The notes under the pieces were generated by a model, which was given only the letters and a program-made list of their open reading frames with translations, did not search any database and had not been told where the DNA came from. Both the position numbers and the translations under genes were made by a program. A stretch of DNA of 60,747 nt from the sequence record NC_029021.1. One strand, written 5' to 3'. This document shows, in pieces, positions 4,707 to 55,317 of this stretch (position 1 is its first letter; each line of letters begins with the position of its first letter). Origin of the DNA: Enterobacteria phage JenK1.

Positions 4707-4806
4707 TACATCAACCGGAGCACGGGCTCCGATCAATCAAGGATTATTGGAGCCTCCCACGGCGGTAGAGTTCCAAAGTAAATCGATTAACTTTGCGGAG
4801 ACTACC

Positions 4807-5910
4807 ATGTCTAAAATTCTGTCAGCTCCGATGCTTAATTTGCGAGCTACCAATTCAATTCTTCTGTCTGCTGTTCGTCGTGGTGCGATCACTGAACTTG
4901 CAGATGTTATCGTTCCAGAGATCTTCGTACCGTATGTGCAGAACCGCACAACTGAAAAGTCCCGACTGATTCAGTCTGGTGCTATTGAGATTTCTGAGCG
5001 TCTTAACGCTGCATTGATGGGTGAAGGTACTACCTTTAACCAGCGTTTCTTCAAAGACCTGGATCGTGACGAAGAAAACGTTTCAAGCGCAAGCGATGCA
5101 ACCGATTCTACTCCTGGTGGTATCAAATCTGGGCGTGAAATTCAGATCCGTCTGTCCCGTAACCATTCATGGGGTTCTGCGGACCTGCTGGACAGCCTGA
5201 TCTCCCCTGACCCGCTGGACGCTATCATTAACTTAGTGGCAAGCTACCGTCAGAGCCGTCTGCAACGTGCATTCGTTGCAACTGTAGGTGGTGTGTTCGC
5301 TATGAACGCCGCTGCTCCGGCTGGTTCCGGTGATAAGAAGTCTACTCACGTTCAGAACGATATGACCCACGACATTTCTGGTTCATCCTTCGTTGATGGT
5401 GTGACTAACTTCAACCCGGCTGGTGTTATCCTGGCGGCTGGTACTATGGGTGACTCCCTGAACGACCTGTCTATGATGATGGTTCACAGTGTGGTCTACC
5501 AGCGTATGCAGCTAATGAACCTGATCGACTTCATCCCAGATGCTCGTGCTGAAGTAATGATCCCGACCTACATGGGCCGTGAGGTTATCGTTGACGATAT
5601 GATGCCGCATGAAAGCGGTAAATACGAAACCTGGCTGGTTGGTCGTGGCGCATTCCAGTTAGGTGTTGGTTCACCGAAAGTTCCTGTTGAAACTGAACGT
5701 AAACCTGCATCCTACAAAGGTGGCGGTTCTGAAATCCTGTTCCACCGCTGGGAAAACATCATTCACCCTGTCGGTCACGCATGGGTTGGTACTGCTGCTG
5801 AAGGTGGTCCGGATAACGCCGCTCTGAAAACTGCTACCAACTGGGCTCGTGTATTCCCTGAGCGTAAACAGATTAAGATTGCTCGCCTGATCACTCGCGA
5901 ACACGCTTAA
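4807..5910 (+). CDS. major capsid protein
   Basis: 368 aa from ATG 4807 (ORF-track start 4675 is TTG inside the structured leader); strong host-like codon bias (ctg, cgt, ggt, aac); follows scaffold gene and ends at a terminator. Confidence 0.7.
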   Translation: MSKILSAPMLNLRATNSILLSAVRRGAITELADVIVPEIFVPYVQNRTTEKSRLIQSGAIEISERLNAALMGEGTTFNQRFFKDLDRDEENVSSASDATDSTPGGIKSGREIQIRLSRNHSWGSADLLDSLISPDPLDAIINLVASYRQSRLQRAFVATVGGVFAMNAAAPAGSGDKKSTHVQNDMTHDISGSSFVDGVTNFNPAGVILAAGTMGDSLNDLSMMMVHSVVYQRMQLMNLIDFIPDARAEVMIPTYMGREVIVDDMMPHESGKYETWLVGRGAFQLGVGSPKVPVETERKPASYKGGGSEILFHRWENIIHPVGHAWVGTAAEGGPDNAALKTATNWARVFPERKQIKIARLITREHA

Positions 5911-16129: not shown

Positions 16130-19100
16130 ATGCCACCAGCAATAATTGGAGCTGTAGTTGCTATCGGTGCAGCGGCTGGGGCAGCGGCAGGTATTATCAC
16201 AGCCACTACTGCGCTTGTGATTGGTATTGCTGCCAGTGCTGCTGGAGCTCTACTTACAAAAACTCAGAGCTATAACTTTGACTCCTATACACCTCAGAGT
16301 GAGCGTAAACAGGTTATTCGTGCTGCTGCTGCATCCAGGACAGTGATTTATGGGACAACTGTGTCTAGTGGTGTTCTTGTATTTGCAGAAGAAGAACCTG
16401 GAGTACAGGATCCAGATAAACACGGTGAGAACTACGAGAAGTTGACTCTTGTATTGGCATTAGCTGGGCACGAACTGACCGAAGTAGGACAAGTGTGGTT
16501 AGGGGATGATCCAATAGGTACTTATGCGGGAAATGCGTCCTATAAGGTATACAACAATCCTACTACGGTCAGCCAAGACATGTTGAATCGTTGCCCATCA
16601 TGGAAAAGGGACATGATTGGTAAAGGTATCTGCTGGATGCAATTGAATCTAGTATATGATTCACAGAAGTTTCCAGCTGGGCTTCCTAATGTCAAATGTG
16701 TTAAGAAGGGGAGAAAAGTTCTAGACCCTAGAACTGGTCAGATGGTGTTTAGCAATAATGCCGCCCTTGTGATTTTGGACTATCTTCGAGTGTATCTTAA
16801 ACGCGGAGACGATTCAATTCTTTGGGACCAGTTCAAAGAGGCCGCTAACATATGTGATGAAAGAGTTAAGAACGCGGATGACACGTTTGAATCCCGGTAT
16901 ACTATCAACGGGGAATTTGACATGGATGAAGCACCTTCCAAGATCCTGGAAGACATGCTTGACGCTTGCGGTGGGGAGTTGACTTATATCGGCGGTAAGC
17001 ATGGTATCCTAGTAGGTGCATATTACGGGCCTCCGGAATTAACTCTGGATACGAGTTGCATTGCTGGTGACATTAAAATCACACCAGAGACAGCTTTTAA
17101 AGATCGAACTAATACAATCACAGGTACTTACATCGATCCTCTGCAAAACTATCAAGAAGCAGACTTCCCGTCTGTAAGTGTTTCTGAATGGGTACAACAA
17201 GACGGTCAAGAGATTACACAAGACGTCGATTATCGTTTTGTCACAAGCCCATATCAGGCTCAACGTCTAGCTAACTTGACGTTGAAACGCAAACGTATTG
17301 GTCGTTCCATCGAGATACCATGTAACATGCGTGGGTATCGTTTCCGTCCAGGTATGTATGTCTACGTTGACATTCCTAATATTGGAATGAACAAAGTAGA
17401 GATGCGTGTTATTAAGTGGCAGTTTGATCCGAAAGGTGGTGTCACTGTAACTGTACGTCAAGACTTCCCGGACTTATGGGACGATGCAATTGGCAAACCT
17501 GTAGAGCGACCAGATCTAGTGGATTTGCCTACTGGTGGCGCTATGCAACCTCAGAACCTACAATATGAAGTCTTACAAATTAGCGACGTTGTACAGGGTG
17601 TTCTGTCGTGGCAAAATATAATGGCTGTAGCCTACAACAACGTAGTAATTAAGAAAGATGGTACTACCGTATTGACGGTGCAAGTACCGGGCCAGAGCAC
17701 GCGGATTACGGGGCTTATTCGCGGCGCTTATACAGCACATGTGAAAGCTGTGGCGTATACCGGCGCAACAAGTCCAGAAGCGTATCTTGAATTCAATATT
17801 CAAGCACCTTCCGCCCCTACGTCTGTTGAAGTAACGCAAGGCTACTTCGCAGTGACATTGAAACCAAAATCTGCAGATCTGGCGAACGTTAGTACACAAT
17901 ATGATTTCTGGACGTCCGGTGAAACAAGATTACCATCCGCCGCTGTAGACGTTGTAGAACGACAGGCCACCCGTGCTGGTATGGGCACAACGTGGACTTC
18001 AGAGGGGTTGCTTAATGACCACACTTATTACTGGTACGTGCGGGCAATTAATGCTTTTGGTTCTTCTTCATTTGTAGAGGTGGCTGCAAGATGCTTCACA
18101 GATGCTGCTGGCCTTATTCCGCAAATTGACACAGAGTTCAAAGGTACTAACACCTATAAAGAACTTATGGCTGAGATTGGAAGCGTCAGCGATGGTGTCA
18201 AGAGTTATGTGGACGACCAAATTGAAACCTCTGAAGGGCGCTTAACTCAAACAATAGATACAGTACAACAATCTGTAGTTCTTGTTGACGGTAAAGTGCA
18301 GCAACAGGGCGTCACAATCAATGAACAGGGGCAGTTAATAGATGCTCAAGGTAAGTTGATCGAGACAAACGGCCAACAGATCAATGTGGTCAAAGCTACT
18401 GTACAGGAAGTCAGTAAGTCCGTTGTGGATCTTGAAGGTAACGTCAACGCTCAGTGGGGTGCCAAGATCCAGGTAGATAGTAAAGGTCAAAAATACGTTG
18501 CCGGTATTCAGTTAGGTATGGAAGGTTCCGGTGGAGCCATTCAATCTTACTTTATGGTCAACGCCAACAACTTCGCTATCTATAACCCAACTAACAGCAC
18601 AGCGGATTTAGCATTTGCAGTTAAAAACGGTCAAGTGTTCATGAAGGCAGCGTTCATTGAGAACGGTTCTATTGATAATGCTAAGATCGGTAACTATATT
18701 CAATCTAACAACTATGTAGCTGGTTCTGCAGGCTGGAAGTTGAATAAAGCTGGGGATGCTGAACTGAATAATGTTGTCGTGAGGGGTACGGTATATGCCA
18801 CGAACGGTAGATTCACAGGCGAGATACAAGCAACTAGTGGGACATTTAAAGGTACAGTTGAAGCAAGTAGATTTATCGGGGATGTAGTCGCAATCTATAC
18901 TTTCCCAGATATATTAAGTATAGGTACGGATATTTCCGGTGAGCAATATAAAGTATACACTTATAATGACTCGTCATCCTCCCCACAAGCAAGATCTGTT
19001 GTATTTGATTGTATAGTGAGAACTACAAATACTACAAATGGATATAAATTAAAACTAACATTAGCAGGTCAATATAGGGAATATGTATTCTATCAAACTA

Positions 19101-19258
19101 ATACTATGATTCCTATAAAATTCGGAGTAAGTGGAGTTACAACACGTAGTATACAACTGATTCTGGATACAGATAGGGGTAGTGGTACACATATAGATAT
19201 AATAGCACCGACATTAACAATAGGGAGAGCTAGTGGTACTTTCACTGTAAGTGGATAA
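16130..19258 (+). CDS. tail tip / host specificity protein (lambda J-like)
   Basis: 1042 aa; C-terminal half contains segments matching lambda J as recalled (YVAGIQLGMEGSG...NNFAIYNP, fibronectin-like YYWYVRAINAFGSSSFVEV). Confidence 0.85.
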   Translation: MPPAIIGAVVAIGAAAGAAAGIITATTALVIGIAASAAGALLTKTQSYNFDSYTPQSERKQVIRAAAASRTVIYGTTVSSGVLVFAEEEPGVQDPDKHGENYEKLTLVLALAGHELTEVGQVWLGDDPIGTYAGNASYKVYNNPTTVSQDMLNRCPSWKRDMIGKGICWMQLNLVYDSQKFPAGLPNVKCVKKGRKVLDPRTGQMVFSNNAALVILDYLRVYLKRGDDSILWDQFKEAANICDERVKNADDTFESRYTINGEFDMDEAPSKILEDMLDACGGELTYIGGKHGILVGAYYGPPELTLDTSCIAGDIKITPETAFKDRTNTITGTYIDPLQNYQEADFPSVSVSEWVQQDGQEITQDVDYRFVTSPYQAQRLANLTLKRKRIGRSIEIPCNMRGYRFRPGMYVYVDIPNIGMNKVEMRVIKWQFDPKGGVTVTVRQDFPDLWDDAIGKPVERPDLVDLPTGGAMQPQNLQYEVLQISDVVQGVLSWQNIMAVAYNNVVIKKDGTTVLTVQVPGQSTRITGLIRGAYTAHVKAVAYTGATSPEAYLEFNIQAPSAPTSVEVTQGYFAVTLKPKSADLANVSTQYDFWTSGETRLPSAAVDVVERQATRAGMGTTWTSEGLLNDHTYYWYVRAINAFGSSSFVEVAARCFTDAAGLIPQIDTEFKGTNTYKELMAEIGSVSDGVKSYVDDQIETSEGRLTQTIDTVQQSVVLVDGKVQQQGVTINEQGQLIDAQGKLIETNGQQINVVKATVQEVSKSVVDLEGNVNAQWGAKIQVDSKGQKYVAGIQLGMEGSGGAIQSYFMVNANNFAIYNPTNSTADLAFAVKNGQVFMKAAFIENGSIDNAKIGNYIQSNNYVAGSAGWKLNKAGDAELNNVVVRGTVYATNGRFTGEIQATSGTFKGTVEASRFIGDVVAIYTFPDILSIGTDISGEQYKVYTYNDSSSSPQARSVVFDCIVRTTNTTNGYKLKLTLAGQYREYVFYQTNTMIPIKFGVSGVTTRSIQLILDTDRGSGTHIDIIAPTLTIGRASGTFTVSG

Positions 19259-19263
19259 AAAAT

Positions 19264-19283
19264 AGGCGCTCTATCGAGCGCCT
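19264..19283. terminator. bidirectional terminator between J-like gene and minus-strand moron
   Basis: Perfect 8-bp stem aggcgctc / gagcgcct with tatc loop, A/T runs on both sides. Confidence 0.6.
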
Positions 19284-19288
19284 ATAAT

Positions 19289-19579
19289 TTATTTACAACC
19301 TTCAGACCAACCAACACGGTTCATAGCCGGTGAGCAATCAGGTTTGACTTTTTTACCTTTCATCCACTCAGCTTTAGCTTTACCAGCGGTAGTACCTTCG
19401 TAGATGGAAGTCTGGTGCTCAATGTTACTTACTCCACCAGTATGCCCGCCTAATGATGAACCACTACCAGGACCACCAGCTCCACCATTACCTGGACCAC
19501 CAGTACCACCGGAAGGACCAGTCGCGTAAGCAAACGTAGCAGTCATAGAAAGGATAATGGCGCAGATTAAAGTCTTCAT
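19289..19579 (-). CDS. secreted Gly-rich small protein (moron)
   Basis: Start at second Met (MKTLICAIILSMTATFAYA signal peptide) with AAGGAG RBS; Gly-rich mature region with two C-terminal Cys; opposite strand to flanking tail genes. Confidence 0.6.
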   Translation of the reverse strand: MKTLICAIILSMTATFAYATGPSGGTGGPGNGGAGGPGSGSSLGGHTGGVSNIEHQTSIYEGTTAGKAKAEWMKGKKVKPDCSPAMNRVGWSEGCK

Positions 19580-19610
19580 TTCGAACTCCTTTATGTTTGT
19601 GTGTAACAAC

Positions 19611-19638
19611 TATATAGGGATATAATTTAAGATGTAAA
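19611..19638 (-). promoter_or_regulatory. candidate sigma70 promoter for moron
   Basis: Minus strand TTTACA - 16 bp - TATATA upstream of the moron RBS. Confidence 0.35.
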
Positions 19639-19665
19639 CCCCGATCTTATATAAGGGCACAACTC

Positions 19666-40773: not shown

Positions 40774-41721
40774 TTATTCACTAATATCTGTTGGATCACG
40801 GAAACTTTGATGCGTAGGAATACGCAATTTGTCCTTCATACCATGAGCAAAGAATTTCCATTTAGAAATCTTCCCAATGAATTCATCAGGATGTTCAAAA
40901 TAATATTTACGTTCTTCGTGCGTAAGACGACCAGCACCTACACGCATCTCTTGTCCGACTTCAATAAGACCTTCGAGGCCTTCTGGTACTGTAAGCACAC
41001 GTACATCAAATGAGCCAACCATACCATTTGGAACCATATTAGCTTGATGGCTTGAACGATAAGTCTGCCCTAATTCATTAATCTGGGCTTCATTCTCATT
41101 GGTGCAACCTTCGATGATACGAATGATCTCACCTTCACCATCAGTGAAACGTTTAATGCGGAGATAACCGCCTTCACGCTGCGTACTGCGACCCCATTTA
41201 TATTTCGCTTCAAGGTCACGAATGATCACACCTTCGTATCCCATATCAAGCCAAATATTTTCCCACTCCAAGAGTTCTTGTTCGTTGTTGACCACATACA
41301 GTGGCACAAGTTTCACGTCCATCAACTCGCCGTTAGCGTGACATTCGTCCACGTACTTCTTGAGCATATCATAACGCTCTTTGTACGGTAGATGTGCAAC
41401 GTTTGGTTCGCACAAATCGAATACATGCCACGTCCAAACGTATTCACCTTCAATTTTAGATGTTGCACTACTTGTTTTGCGACATAAGTCAAAGTCTGTT
41501 TCGTTCCCAACGGCAAGCTCACCGTCCATACCATCATAAATGGGAGATCCAAACACCTTTGCGACCTGCTTATTTGCAAAAGATTTAAGACTTCGTCCAA
41601 CAAGCTCCCCAAACGGTTTCATTCCACGAACGCCGTCAATTTTAGGCATAATACCTACAGGATATTTCTGTTTAGCTGAATCCCAATCTGTTGCAAGAAA
41701 AGGACGAAATTTTTTAGTCAT
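40774..41721 (-). CDS. ATP-dependent DNA ligase
   Basis: Motif I KIDGVRG (KxDGxR); start at MTKKF (track start 41736 is 5 codons upstream). Confidence 0.75.
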   Translation of the reverse strand: MTKKFRPFLATDWDSAKQKYPVGIMPKIDGVRGMKPFGELVGRSLKSFANKQVAKVFGSPIYDGMDGELAVGNETDFDLCRKTSSATSKIEGEYVWTWHVFDLCEPNVAHLPYKERYDMLKKYVDECHANGELMDVKLVPLYVVNNEQELLEWENIWLDMGYEGVIIRDLEAKYKWGRSTQREGGYLRIKRFTDGEGEIIRIIEGCTNENEAQINELGQTYRSSHQANMVPNGMVGSFDVRVLTVPEGLEGLIEVGQEMRVGAGRLTHEERKYYFEHPDEFIGKISKWKFFAHGMKDKLRIPTHQSFRDPTDISE

Positions 41722-42248
41722 CTGAACCCTCCACATGCAAATTCGTCATGTATAGATTTTCTCATATCATCTAACCATTCTGAAGCAAGAGCTAAACCTT
41801 CATCCGTAAATGGAAACACCTTCTGTTTACGTTTACCATTAACTTGAATTGCGGCGCACCAACGCTCATAACCATTATTGTTTACAAACCGAGATACACC
41901 TTTTACACCGGAAGTGTTGTTAGCCTGAATAATTTTATTACAGTTATTTTGGCTTGATGTGGCTTTTCTAATATTACACCATCTGTTATCAAAACCTTTC
42001 CCGTTTTTATGGTCTATTTCGGCTTGAGGATCTTCCCCTGTCATCCATTTCCAAATGACCCTGTGAACAAAGTAATCGCGTCCTTTAAGACCTACATACT
42101 TATAATTTAGACCATAATACCCAGCTTCCGCTCCAGCAACTCTTCTCCGCCAACTTTTACGCCAACTAAGAATGCCAGTTTCCGCGTTATAATCCAATAA
42201 CTCTTTTAATTCCTGTTGACTATAAGGAATAGGTTTAAATCGAGCCAT
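41718..42248 (-). CDS. HNH homing endonuclease with AP2-like DNA-binding domain
   Basis: HRVIW...IDHKNG...N...NLR HNH motif and GVKGVS...W.A AP2-like segment; free-standing between ligase and RNase H. Confidence 0.65.
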   Translation of the reverse strand: MARFKPIPYSQQELKELLDYNAETGILSWRKSWRRRVAGAEAGYYGLNYKYVGLKGRDYFVHRVIWKWMTGEDPQAEIDHKNGKGFDNRWCNIRKATSSQNNCNKIIQANNTSGVKGVSRFVNNNGYERWCAAIQVNGKRKQKVFPFTDEGLALASEWLDDMRKSIHDEFACGGFR

Positions 42249-42825: not shown

Positions 42826-43251
42826 TTAACCCTTCTTAACAGCGATCTTAACCTGTGGAGAACCTGGAGTTGTGGTCACACATTCGTCAAAGATCGCCAA
42901 CTGTTCAGCTGTGAGCTTACGATATGCAGCCACACGGAGTTCTACTTTAGTTTCAGTAACTTCGTTAACATCCACACCAGCTTCAATAAGGTCTGGCAGG
43001 ATCTGACTAAAGATCGCCTTATCAACTTTACGCGTATAAGGTTGAGTAACAACAAGATCATCACCTGTATCAAGTTTAATCTTGTTAGTATTCTCGTTAA
43101 GACCATCTGGAAAGAAGACGCTAACCACACTTTGGCGCAGTGCGCGTTCTTGCGCTTGTACTTTGGCCAATTCTTCTTTCTTAGAATACCAGTTGTAAAG
43201 GAGTTCGTACTTCTGCTCTTCAGTTAAGTTCATTTCTGGTAGCTGGACCAT
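42826..43251 (-). CDS. hypothetical protein
   Basis: 141-aa ORF; no motif. Confidence 0.5.
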   Translation of the reverse strand: MVQLPEMNLTEEQKYELLYNWYSKKEELAKVQAQERALRQSVVSVFFPDGLNENTNKIKLDTGDDLVVTQPYTRKVDKAIFSQILPDLIEAGVDVNEVTETKVELRVAAYRKLTAEQLAIFDECVTTTPGSPQVKIAVKKG

Positions 43252-43260
43252 GTTATCACC

Positions 43261-43578
43261 TTATTGCAAAGATAAAGATACAGTAATAAAGTTTCTTGCC
43301 TGAATATCACTACTTACATTTTTGTCATTCATTGTGGATTCTACGAACTGCATTACTTCCTTCGTAGACATACCCGATTCTGAAGCTGTTCTTGCAGCTT
43401 TACACAGACCGATGCTAGTCTTAATGACGTTATCAGCGTACTTCTTATCAATATTGTAACGCTCATTCTTAATAAGAATGTCTTTATTTACAATGTCTGA
43501 GACAGTTTCACAATTGAACGTATATGCGTTCGCGTTGACAGATACAACTAATCCTAACAAAACAAGTAGCTTTTTCAT
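43261..43578 (-). CDS. secreted small protein
   Basis: Signal peptide MKKLLVLLGLVVSVNANA; AAGGAG RBS; own promoter upstream. Confidence 0.6.
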   Translation of the reverse strand: MKKLLVLLGLVVSVNANAYTFNCETVSDIVNKDILIKNERYNIDKKYADNVIKTSIGLCKAARTASESGMSTKEVMQFVESTMNDKNVSSDIQARNFITVSLSLQ

Positions 43579-43605
43579 TTCTAGCTCCTTTTTCTTAATG
43601 AGGGT

Positions 43606-43634
43606 ATATTACCCAACTAAAACGTTGATGTAAA
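43606..43634 (-). promoter_or_regulatory. candidate sigma70 promoter enclosed by inverted repeat
   Basis: Minus strand TTTACA - 17 bp - TAATAT, flanked by 8-bp inverted repeat GAGGGTAT / ATACCCTC. Confidence 0.4.
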
Positions 43635-43649
43635 TACCCTCGGAGCTTA

Positions 43650-44168
43650 TTACAGCTTACCAGTAGAACCAAAACCTCCGCGGCCTGTTTCTTCTACAAT
43701 ACCAGAAACAATGCGCGTACGAACCAACTCCACAAGACGTGCCTGTGCAATACGTTCGCCAACCTGGACTGTATAAGGTTCACAAGAGTCGTTATGCAGA
43801 CGTATCTTCAACTCATCACGGTAATCATGATCAATGATACCAGTACAGTTACCTAAACGAATTCCGTGTTTAAACCCGTGACCGCTACGTGAATAAACTT
43901 CCAGGCCGTAACCATGAGGGATCTGTAGCTTAATACCCGTGCTGAACGTATACGCACGACCTCCATAGATAGTTACGGGCTCTGGTTCATCCGCATAGAT
44001 ATCAAAGCACATAGAACCTGGAGTGGCAAATCGCGGCATTTGAGCAGTGTCCGTAAGGAGCTCCACGATTAGCTGTTGCACAGCGCCATCTTGAACCGCA
44101 ATAGTACCTTTGACAGTTACATCTTTGATAATATTAGACATATCGTCTTTGTTAGTCATGTTTTTCAC
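43650..44168 (-). CDS. dut: dUTP diphosphatase
   Basis: Motifs RSG, GIIDHDYRDEL, RGGFGSTG. Confidence 0.8.
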   Translation of the reverse strand: MKNMTNKDDMSNIIKDVTVKGTIAVQDGAVQQLIVELLTDTAQMPRFATPGSMCFDIYADEPEPVTIYGGRAYTFSTGIKLQIPHGYGLEVYSRSGHGFKHGIRLGNCTGIIDHDYRDELKIRLHNDSCEPYTVQVGERIAQARLVELVRTRIVSGIVEETGRGGFGSTGKL

Positions 44169-44784: not shown

Positions 44785-44814
44785 CCAAAAAATAGGGGGT
44801 ACACAAGTACCCCC
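44785..44814 (-). terminator. hairpin with U-run (terminator or attenuator) on minus strand
   Basis: Perfect 8-bp stem GGGGGTAC / GTACCCCC, 4-nt loop, then TATTTTTTGG on the minus strand immediately before the nuclease gene start. Confidence 0.4.
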
Positions 44815-54053: not shown

Positions 54054-54076
54054 TTGCCCACTGTTACTATGGGCAA
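54054..54076 (-). promoter_or_regulatory. palindromic element overlapping candidate promoter (copy 1)
   Basis: ttgcccactgttactatgggcaa; on minus strand reads TTGCCC - 17 bp - TAATAT upstream of 53759-54016 gene. Confidence 0.4.
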
Positions 54077-55269: not shown

Positions 55270-55296
55270 GTTGTTCTAGCGGATTGCTAGTGGGAG

Positions 55297-55317
55297 CCCA
55301 CTGTAACAATGGGCAAC
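55297..55317 (-). promoter_or_regulatory. palindromic element (copy 2)
   Basis: gcccactgtaacaatgggcaa; 19 of 21 nt identical to copy at 54056-54076. Confidence 0.4.

Follow-up and report, generated by a model that had tools for sequence, protein, structure and literature searches.

A small gene for a predicted exported protein and a hairpin containing a putative promoter at the dUTPase–DUF7173 junction of a Nonagvirus genome

The window, by which we mean the whole stretch of 60,747 nucleotides that was analysed (Enterobacteria phage JenK1, NC_029021.1), is the genome of a Nonagvirus (Queuovirinae; phage 9g group). The region studied here is 90–98% identical to the Nonagvirus phages ESCO3, BRET, SE1, ChristophMerian, 9g, JenP1/2, and HdSG1, and the genes in this part of the window are oriented on the minus strand. 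The locus contains the following features:

42826..43251, minus strand: DUF7173 gene, the next cistron (PF23791, 2e-37)
43261..43578, minus strand: gene for a small, predicted exported protein; 105-aa ORF with an ATG start (PHROG 32702, function unknown)
43525..43578, minus strand: predicted Sec (signal peptidase I) signal peptide, residues 1–18 = MKKLLVLLGLVVSVNANA, cut before YTF
43585..43590, minus strand: Shine–Dalgarno motif AAGGAG of the small gene, read from the sequence
43600..43641, minus strand: hairpin or quasi-palindrome containing the promoter (RNA fold, covariation, covariance model)
43606..43634, minus strand: sigma-70-type promoter-like element TTTACA-17-TAATAT (motif scan and comparison with relatives)
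43650..44168, minus strand: dUTPase gene (PF00692, 1e-17)

Upstream of the small gene lie the dUTPase (PF00692) and a PDDEXK/RusA-like nuclease, while DUF7173, an RNase H, an HNH endonuclease, and an ATP-dependent DNA ligase follow downstream. This confirms the location in a DNA and nucleotide-metabolism block that had been noted in an earlier, sequence-only reading of the same DNA. A search for a replication origin found that GC skew tracks gene orientation only and shows nothing particular at 43.6 kb. The dUTPase stop codon and the ATG of the small gene are separated by a 71-bp spacer, which on the minus strand reads TAA-TAAGCTCC-GAGGGTAT-TTACA-TCAACGTTTTAGTTGGG-TAAT-ATACCCTC-ATTAAGAAAAAGGAGCTAGAA-ATG. 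The sequence GGAG is found at 43588..43585, six bases ahead of this ATG, and the complete AAGGAG motif is kept in ESCO3, SE1, and BRET and in a distant phage contig (L013). The ATG of the DUF7173 gene is located 9 bp past the stop codon of the small gene, and a terminator scan of the region detects no terminator after the small gene, which makes it the first cistron of a shared operon. When loci with and without the small gene are aligned, DUF7173 is the first cistron behind the same promoter in the phages that lack the gene. Judged from these loci, the small gene is an optional first cistron of a shared replication operon and stands behind that operon's putative promoter.

The ORF is matched over its full length by phrog_32702 (4e-69). 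Among eight alleles, giving 28 allele pairs, dN/dS ranges from 0.05 to 0.44, showing that the reading frame is under purifying selection and that the small ORF is a real gene. Its distribution is narrow. Among 50,697 phage records, the only carriers are ESCO3, BRET, and SE1/SE1Kor. A search of 5.8 billion proteins returned five close protein clusters, and two further relatives of 108 aa with ~30% identity (P0007 and P0008) came from an exhaustive HMMER scan of 1.84 billion representatives, so that among 5.8 billion sequences the family amounts to no more than about seven protein clusters. A further match from the representative search, the 692-aa repeat protein P0006 (E = 1.5e-4), was judged spurious, being repetitive and having neither the signal peptide nor the cysteine pattern of the family.

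The two distant relatives are encoded on the phage contigs L012 and L013, where the homologue (X) occupies the same slot in the order dUTPase–(57-aa ORF)–X–DUF7173. The neighbouring proteins of these contigs are 57–84% identical to those of the window, whereas X is only 28–32% identical, and this comparison indicates that the small protein diverges much faster than its replication-gene neighbours. Furthermore, the presence of ~30%-identical homologues in the same slot of divergent phages points to a long residence at the locus; on this sequence comparison, the small gene is an old resident rather than a recent import.

Among all the nonagvirus-like loci that we collected, 14 of 32 carry the small gene and 18 lack it. 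It is absent from 9g, JenP1, JenP2, HdSG1, SP8, ChristophMerian, PD328, FritzHoffmann, and Kpn2-P2. The flanks of ChristophMerian are the closest to those of the window (97.9%), yet this phage is without the gene, which indicates that the distribution is mosaic and not bound to a clade. Simple deletion was considered as the source of the gene-less form and rejected, as the two intergenic versions share no ORF remnant. From the dUTPase stop codon up to the ribosome-binding site of DUF7173, the gene-carrying and the gene-less forms have different spacers throughout.

The encoded 105-aa precursor starts MKKLLVLLGLVVSVNANAYTFNCETV... and is arranged as MKK / LLVLLGLVVSV / NANA|Y. Its n-region contains two lysines, the 11-residue core formed by residues 4–14 is the sole hydrophobic stretch in the protein, and Ala occupies positions −3 and −1 of the predicted cleavage site (A-N-A before Tyr19). 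The signal peptide was called from rule-based features only, namely a charged n-region, an h-region of 7–15 residues, and small residues at −3/−1, all of which are present in the protein. Both distant homologues, at 28–32% identity, retain the signal peptide, the YTxxC start of the mature protein, the second Cys, a GM motif, and a C-terminal SLSL[QN]. The product is thus predicted to be exported by the Sec pathway and cleaved after residue 18, and the secreted small protein of the sequence-only reading stands, as a prediction by rules (lysines, hydrophobic residues 4–14, A-x-A) whose layout is kept at ~30% identity. Alternatively, the N-terminal segment could remain uncleaved, yielding a type II membrane protein with its helical domain on the outer face of the inner membrane. 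Cleavage is indeed deduced from rules only; however, the 11-residue hydrophobic core is too short for a stable transmembrane helix, and a conserved A-x-A/S site follows the core in all homologues, which makes such an anchored form very unlikely. No lipobox is found, as the signal-peptide end does not match [LVI][ASTVI][GAS]C; position 13, preceded by V-V, is S in the window and C in some alleles, and is not conserved.

The predicted mature form has 87 residues, a mass of 9.8 kDa, and a pI of 6.4. AlphaFold2 models it as a four-helix bundle with a pLDDT of 85.1 and a pTM of 0.74 when the distant homologues are included, and with a pLDDT of 74 when only close homologues are used. Cysteines C23 and C59 are invariant, and a single disulfide between them probably staples the predicted bundle. 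Structure searches with the model return generic helical bundles, with no significant match besides its own SE1Kor orthologue. For the small protein, Pfam yields only a sub-threshold match to DUF4738, PHROGs only families of unknown function, and NCBIfam, PADLOC, and a PDB sequence search no match; these empty homology and structure searches mean that the function is not readable from homology. A literature search found no description of the small protein or of a promoter placed in a hairpin of this kind. The small protein is an uncharacterised addition to a broad class, namely the small accessory proteins that phages export.

The promoter-like element consists of a −35-like TTTACA at 43634..43629, a 17-bp spacer, and a −10-like TAATAT at 43611..43606 on the minus strand; by the usual spacing, the start site would lie near 43599. 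Its match to the sigma-70 consensus is 9/12, and such matches occur here at the shuffled rate (28 found, 27.6 expected). Perfect 8-bp inverted repeats within 60 bp are likewise present three times in the surrounding 1.2 kb. At such chance-level frequencies, neither motif stands out in a single sequence, and the evidence that the element is real comes from the comparison with relatives. All 32 nonagvirus-like loci have this architecture at this junction, once per locus, so that the TTTACA-17-TAATAT described in the sequence-only reading is both present and conserved. Across seven variants, which follow TTTACA-17-TA[AT][ATC][ATG]T, TTTACA and the 17-bp spacing are invariant and the −10 hexamer keeps T1, A2, and T6 in 7/7, while the sequence of the spacer varies. 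Constant hexamer positions over a changing spacer are the signature that would be expected of a working sigma-70 promoter.

The gene-less relatives have a dUTPase–DUF7173 spacer of 75–80 bp with the same promoter design. In these phages, the promoter and hairpin are located directly after the dUTPase, 31–32 bp ahead of the DUF7173 gene. The element reads TAGGGGTA-TTTACA-AGGAATTTAATTCTAAG-TATTAT-ACCCCTA in 9g, TAGTGGTA...TACCACT in ChristophMerian, and TAGGGG-T[AG]-TTTACA-ACGAACTAAGTTCCTAG-TAAATT-ACCCCTA in FritzHoffmann and the Klebsiella phage Kpn2-P2. In the two distant contigs that carry the gene, it reads ATGTAGGTAC-TTTACA-17-TATTGT-ACCTACAT (L012) and TAATGAGGGTA-TTTACA-17-TAATAT-ACCCTCATTA (L013). 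Since the promoter is kept in relatives without the small gene, it is not, as had been proposed at first, that gene's own; on this comparison, it belongs to the replication operon. The genome paper of 9g predicts promoters only at the genome end (PMC4276943), and our literature search found no nonagvirus transcriptome.

The relation of the small gene to its promoter bears on its resemblance to morons. Morons are autonomous inserts of promoter, gene, and terminator between conserved genes. Similar to these, the small gene is optional, is flanked by two conserved genes, is present in some close relatives and absent from others, and is predicted to encode an envelope-directed product. In contrast to morons, it has no private promoter and no terminator, the next cistron begins 9 bp on, and the slot is shared by homologues of ~30% identity from divergent phages.

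The promoter is embedded in a larger palindromic structure. The perfect 8-bp arms GAGGGTAT (43641..43634) and ATACCCTC (43607..43600) overlap the hexamers by 1–2 bases rather than strictly enclosing them. The repeat that was reported first is therefore present with perfect arms, but instead of enclosing the promoter it forms the base of a larger hairpin, and the whole promoter is a quasi-palindrome of 42–50 nt. In the window, RNAfold predicts a three-tier hairpin of 17 bp (−20.6 kcal/mol, z = −5.3) with the lower stem GAGGGUAU/AUACCCUC, the middle stem UUAC/GUAA, and the upper stem UCAAC/GUUGG. Across lineages, the lower stem has 8–13 bp, the middle stem is UUAC/GUAA, and the upper stem has 3–5 bp; the folds of six lineages range from −18 to −25 kcal/mol, with z of −4.2 to −7.0.

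An alignment of 11 sequences gave a covariation score of 0.307, compared with 0.164 ± 0.024 for shuffled alignments (0/500 reach it) and at most 0.143 for slid partners. In the same alignment, six pairs show double-sided changes, for instance from A-U to G-C, G-C to A-U, or G-C to U-A, and these changes are located at pairs 16–57, 17–56, and 18–55 and in the upper stem. The one-sided changes that leave a standard pair are all G.U, such as the change from A-U to G.U in the upper stem of BRET. The arms of L012 are wholly different, yet complementary over 12 bp. The hairpin is thus kept in seven sequence variants by compensatory change, while the inner GGTA/TACC of the arms is almost invariant.

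With filters off, a covariance model scores the element at 70.8 bits and finds it as a single copy in the window, the next match having 12 bits. Among the 32 nonagvirus-like loci, the model finds one sense-strand copy in each, always at this junction. A regex scan of all −35/−10-like sites for flanking inverted repeats revealed no second copy, and the element has no Rfam match. Scans of IMG/VR and metagenomes returned no more diverse copies, only two common haplotypes. An intrinsic terminator was considered for the hairpin and rejected: the arms are separated by 26 nt, the sequence that comes after them (ATTAAGAAAAAGG) has no T run, and the terminator scan makes no call.

The dUTPase stop codon is located 8 bases ahead of the hairpin, and the scan detects no terminator-like site between the two, so that dUTPase transcripts run into the hairpin. 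In contrast, a transcript starting at about 43599 would not contain the 5' arm, and only dUTPase read-through RNA can therefore fold. A different role for the repeat was put forward in the sequence-only reading, which described the promoter as flanked by an operator. In such a model, the inverted repeat would bind a dimeric regulator of the phage or the host, clamping the −35 and −10 hexamers and switching the internal promoter off or on during infection. In every variant, the dyad symmetry coincides precisely with the outer edges of the two hexamers, and the inner GGTA/TACC core of the arms is almost invariant, as would suit a protein-binding site. Moreover, regulators are predicted in the 9g paper (TetR-like gp3, gp15, and gp17; PMC4276943). 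However, the arm 8-mer has no copy beyond the two arms in the 60.7-kb genome, the whole element being single-copy, and the ~34 bp between the centres of the half-sites are an unusual distance for a dimer. The arms also differ between phages with 100% identical DUF7173 protein (gp17), their outer positions changing in pairs, and those of L012 are entirely different. In addition, the upper and middle stems pair and covary, which an operator on the flanks does not explain. The paired, complementarity-preserving changes in the arms, together with the G.U changes, favour base pairing over sequence-specific recognition by a repressor. A conserved, dyad-symmetric element is thus indeed located upstream of the gene, but with a unique arm 8-mer and covarying outer positions its reading as an operator is doubtful, and we consider it unlikely.

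The diverged relatives Vid5 and Seurat also have dyad symmetry at the junction promoter in a different geometry, with an 8-bp repeat around the −10 in Vid5 and a palindrome in the spacer in Seurat; this, too, can be counted in favour of an operator.

The opposite possibility is that the likeness to a promoter is incidental. The element would then be nothing but RNA structure in the terminal part of the dUTPase message, acting in processing, as a stabiliser, or as a pause site, and the small gene and DUF7173 would be transcribed from upstream promoters only. The hairpin is strong, conserved, and covarying, and the promoter score of a single sequence is at chance level. In addition, TTTAC and GTAA are mutually complementary, and part of the hexamer likeness consequently follows from the palindrome itself. 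Nevertheless, TTTACA and T1, A2, and T6 of the −10 are fixed while the neighbouring stems covary, and their distance is exactly 17 in 7/7 variants despite different upper stem-loops. Furthermore, a terminator (44814..44795) is located only 1.2 kb upstream of the element, and it would be sensible for the long replication operon that follows to be served by a new promoter. We therefore regard a purely RNA-based role as improbable.

The explanation that we prefer, with somewhat more confidence than doubt, combines an accessory periplasmic protein, a conserved internal promoter, and a hairpin in read-through RNA. At the boundary of the dUTPase gene and the DUF7173–RNase H–ligase genes, all members of the group would carry one internal promoter of the sigma-70 type, built into a hairpin-forming quasi-palindrome of 42–50 nt, and we infer that this promoter is active. 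In about half of the lineages, including that of the window, an extra gene between the promoter and DUF7173 would become the first cistron of an early/middle replication operon. Its product would be exported by the Sec pathway, lose its 18-residue signal peptide, and remain in the periplasm as a four-helix bundle of 9.8 kDa. The hairpin, in turn, would act mainly in the dUTPase read-through RNA, as a stabiliser of the 3' end or as a processing site of the RNase III kind, and would not serve as a repressor operator. A 3' stabiliser or processing site of the upstream message may thus be superimposed on the promoter of the downstream message.

Several observations stand against this explanation. 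The arms always abut both hexamers, which a role in RNA alone does not require, and the inner GGTA/TACC could equally be the half-site of a protein. The hairpin is interrupted, and compared with a classical RNase III substrate its stems are short (8, 3–4, and 3–5 bp). The promoter match, as mentioned above, is only 9/12 and at chance frequency as a single sequence.

The closest parallel for such a processing site is found in phage T7. The RNase III hairpins of T7 are intergenic, 40–60 nt long, and interrupted, and are located in long early/middle transcripts near internal promoters. The three-tier hairpin described here is likewise intergenic and is conserved by covariation. The arrangement differs, however: a T7 hairpin lies downstream of the promoter and is part of its transcript, whereas here the promoter is inside the hairpin and only read-through RNA can fold.

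The protein is likely to be a periplasmic, envelope-directed accessory protein, as judged from its sequence features. In the preferred explanation, it would act on the cell envelope early in infection, most likely by blocking the entry of further phage DNA. Its closest functional analogue is Spackle of phage T4, by analogy and not by membership in the same family. On the T4 map, the Spackle gene is early and embedded among DNA-replication genes. Its precursor of ~100 aa carries a cleaved export signal, similar to the 105-aa precursor described here, with its predicted 87-aa four-helix bundle and two invariant cysteines. Spackle itself (gp61.3) is produced early, has ~75 aa and one disulfide, and forms a helical bundle in the periplasm; it blocks superinfecting phage (PMC7677548). 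In contrast to these likenesses, a PDB profile search at E up to 10 reveals no sequence similarity between the two proteins, and structure searches reveal no similarity of fold. The target of Spackle is the tail-spike lysozyme, for which no counterpart was found in the tape measure, J, and fibre proteins of this siphovirus; Pfam detects no muralytic domain in these, the only proteins scanned. Spackle is also widespread in T-even phages, whereas the small protein forms about seven clusters among 5.8 billion sequences. By this analogy, superinfection exclusion following the logic of Spackle is a tentative assignment.

Small exported proteins that protect the infected cell are also present in lytic and temperate siphoviruses, such as Llp of T5 and Cor of T1 and phi80. 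The protein described here shares with these its small size and, by prediction, its export. However, Llp and Cor are receptor-masking lipoproteins encoded beside the receptor-binding gene, whereas the small protein has no lipobox, its gene is located in the replication block 24 kb from gpJ, and its presence is uncoupled from the receptor-binding allele. In the comparison of small-gene presence with this allele, no link was found: HdK1 and HdSG1 share the gpJ-distal allele of the window (99% identity) without having the small gene, and BRET and SE1 carry the gene together with another allele. No sequence or fold link was found between the small protein and Spackle, RI, Llp, Cor, or any other known protein of superinfection exclusion or lysis, the two functions suggested in the sequence-only reading.

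The same facts, namely presumed early/middle expression, predicted export, optional presence, and fast divergence, fit a periplasmic role other than exclusion equally. The protein could neutralise or exploit a component of the host envelope, or tune the timing of lysis in the manner of the T4 antiholin RI. Candidate targets for such a role include periplasmic proteases, stress sensors, enzymes acting on the cell wall, and envelope defences encoded by a prophage. The lack of correlation with the receptor-binding allele is in favour of a role of this type. Small siphoviruses usually keep their exclusion gene beside gpJ (PMC8594841), and this genome has another, separate gene for a secreted protein at that canonical position, which likewise favours a role outside exclusion. 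Nothing positive, however, points to any particular target. For lysis timing in particular, a long distance separates the small gene from the lysis genes, the signal peptide, with its strong hydrophobicity and its AXA site, does not resemble the Gly/Ala-rich signal-anchor-release segment of the RI type, and no match to RI is found in fold or sequence. A periplasmic role other than exclusion is thus a possibility to which we give limited credence.

A more far-reaching version of the preferred explanation joins two proposals, a junction with dual use and a new class of soluble periplasmic exclusion factors that would block entry independently of the outer-membrane receptor. In this combined form, the DNA would act as a sigma-70 promoter and the read-through RNA as a covarying hairpin that is cleaved or bound, and read-through and internal initiation would either give near-identical downstream 5' ends or trade off against each other. 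We consider it a long shot that both proposals hold together.

Small exported accessory proteins are common in phages, and neither the protein nor the element touches a long-standing open question. The small gene is a fairly ordinary accessory gene, and the regulatory element in front of it is mildly unusual. Should the protein prove to act in exclusion or to modify the envelope, it would represent a new soluble effector that siphoviruses use in the periplasm. Relatives of this phage are part of therapy collections (Bas19 and Bas20 of BASEL), and such a factor could influence cocktail design and the competition between phages. The promoter in the hairpin is compact, single-copy, and comparatively well supported, and it offers a direct test of whether a phage uses one set of bases both for a promoter in DNA and for a structure in RNA.

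The dUTPase/DUF7173 junction, which in the window holds the 105-residue putative exported-protein gene, carries a further small gene (MSRRKRKLKEVEY...) in three relatives, located in each between dUTPase and the junction promoter:

L012, 3564-3737: small basic ORF
L013, about 4755-4926: small basic ORF
L025 (Seurat), about 1715-1880: small basic ORF (MGKRKKKLSKQ...)

L012 and L013 are divergent phage contigs with homologues of the putative exported protein, and Seurat is a more distant relative. A Pfam search of the basic ORF gave no match. Its presence in these three phages and its absence from the window mark the junction as a hotspot for optional small genes.

Two other features are found in the neighboring minus-strand genes:

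41718-42248, minus strand: HNH_3 endonuclease gene (PF13392, 2e-9)
44795-44814, minus strand: intrinsic-terminator-like hairpin, GGGGGTAC-TTGT-GTACCCCC, then TATTTTTT

The endonuclease gene interrupts the RNase H and DNA ligase pair, which adjoin or overlap in ESCO3, 9g, BRET, and SE1. In FritzHoffmann, this slot is occupied by a different homing endonuclease. The hairpin immediately precedes the RusA-like gene's ribosome-binding site and is marked as a terminator in the HdSG1 and SP8 annotations. Its arms (GGGGTA/TACCCC) are identical in bases to those of the 9g-type junction hairpin, the form enclosing the junction promoter in 9g, a relative that lacks the exported-protein gene. This identity may be a coincidence or a clue to the origin of the promoter hairpin.

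A second predicted signal-peptide ORF is observed in the tail region:

19289-19609, minus strand: glycine-rich ORF, MKTLICAIILSMTATFAYA|TGPSGGTGGPG...
about 19283-19252, minus strand: strong terminator-like hairpin with T-run, TATAGGCGCTCGATAGAGCGCCTATTTTTT, directly after the ORF

The ORF has the gpJ-like tail-tip gene on one side and the gene for the lateral fibre on the other, both on the opposite strand, and a Pfam search of its product gave no match. The interval between gpJ-like and lateral fibre genes is the reported location of exclusion genes in small siphoviruses (PMC8594841). Across 18300-19665, which covers the distal portion of the gpJ-like gene and the sequence beyond it, identity to HdK1 and HdSG1 is 99%; this is the Nonagvirus receptor-binding allele for which the BASEL study found no matching known receptor.

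Finally, the control region where the minus-strand early genes begin contains a repeated element, with copies spaced by about 1.2 kb:

54054-54076: 21-bp near-palindrome TTGCCCAnnGTnACAGTGGGC, copy 1
55294-55316: the same near-palindrome, copy 2

The element gives four strand-matches against 0.04 expected, and its copies may be either operator sites or structured RNAs.
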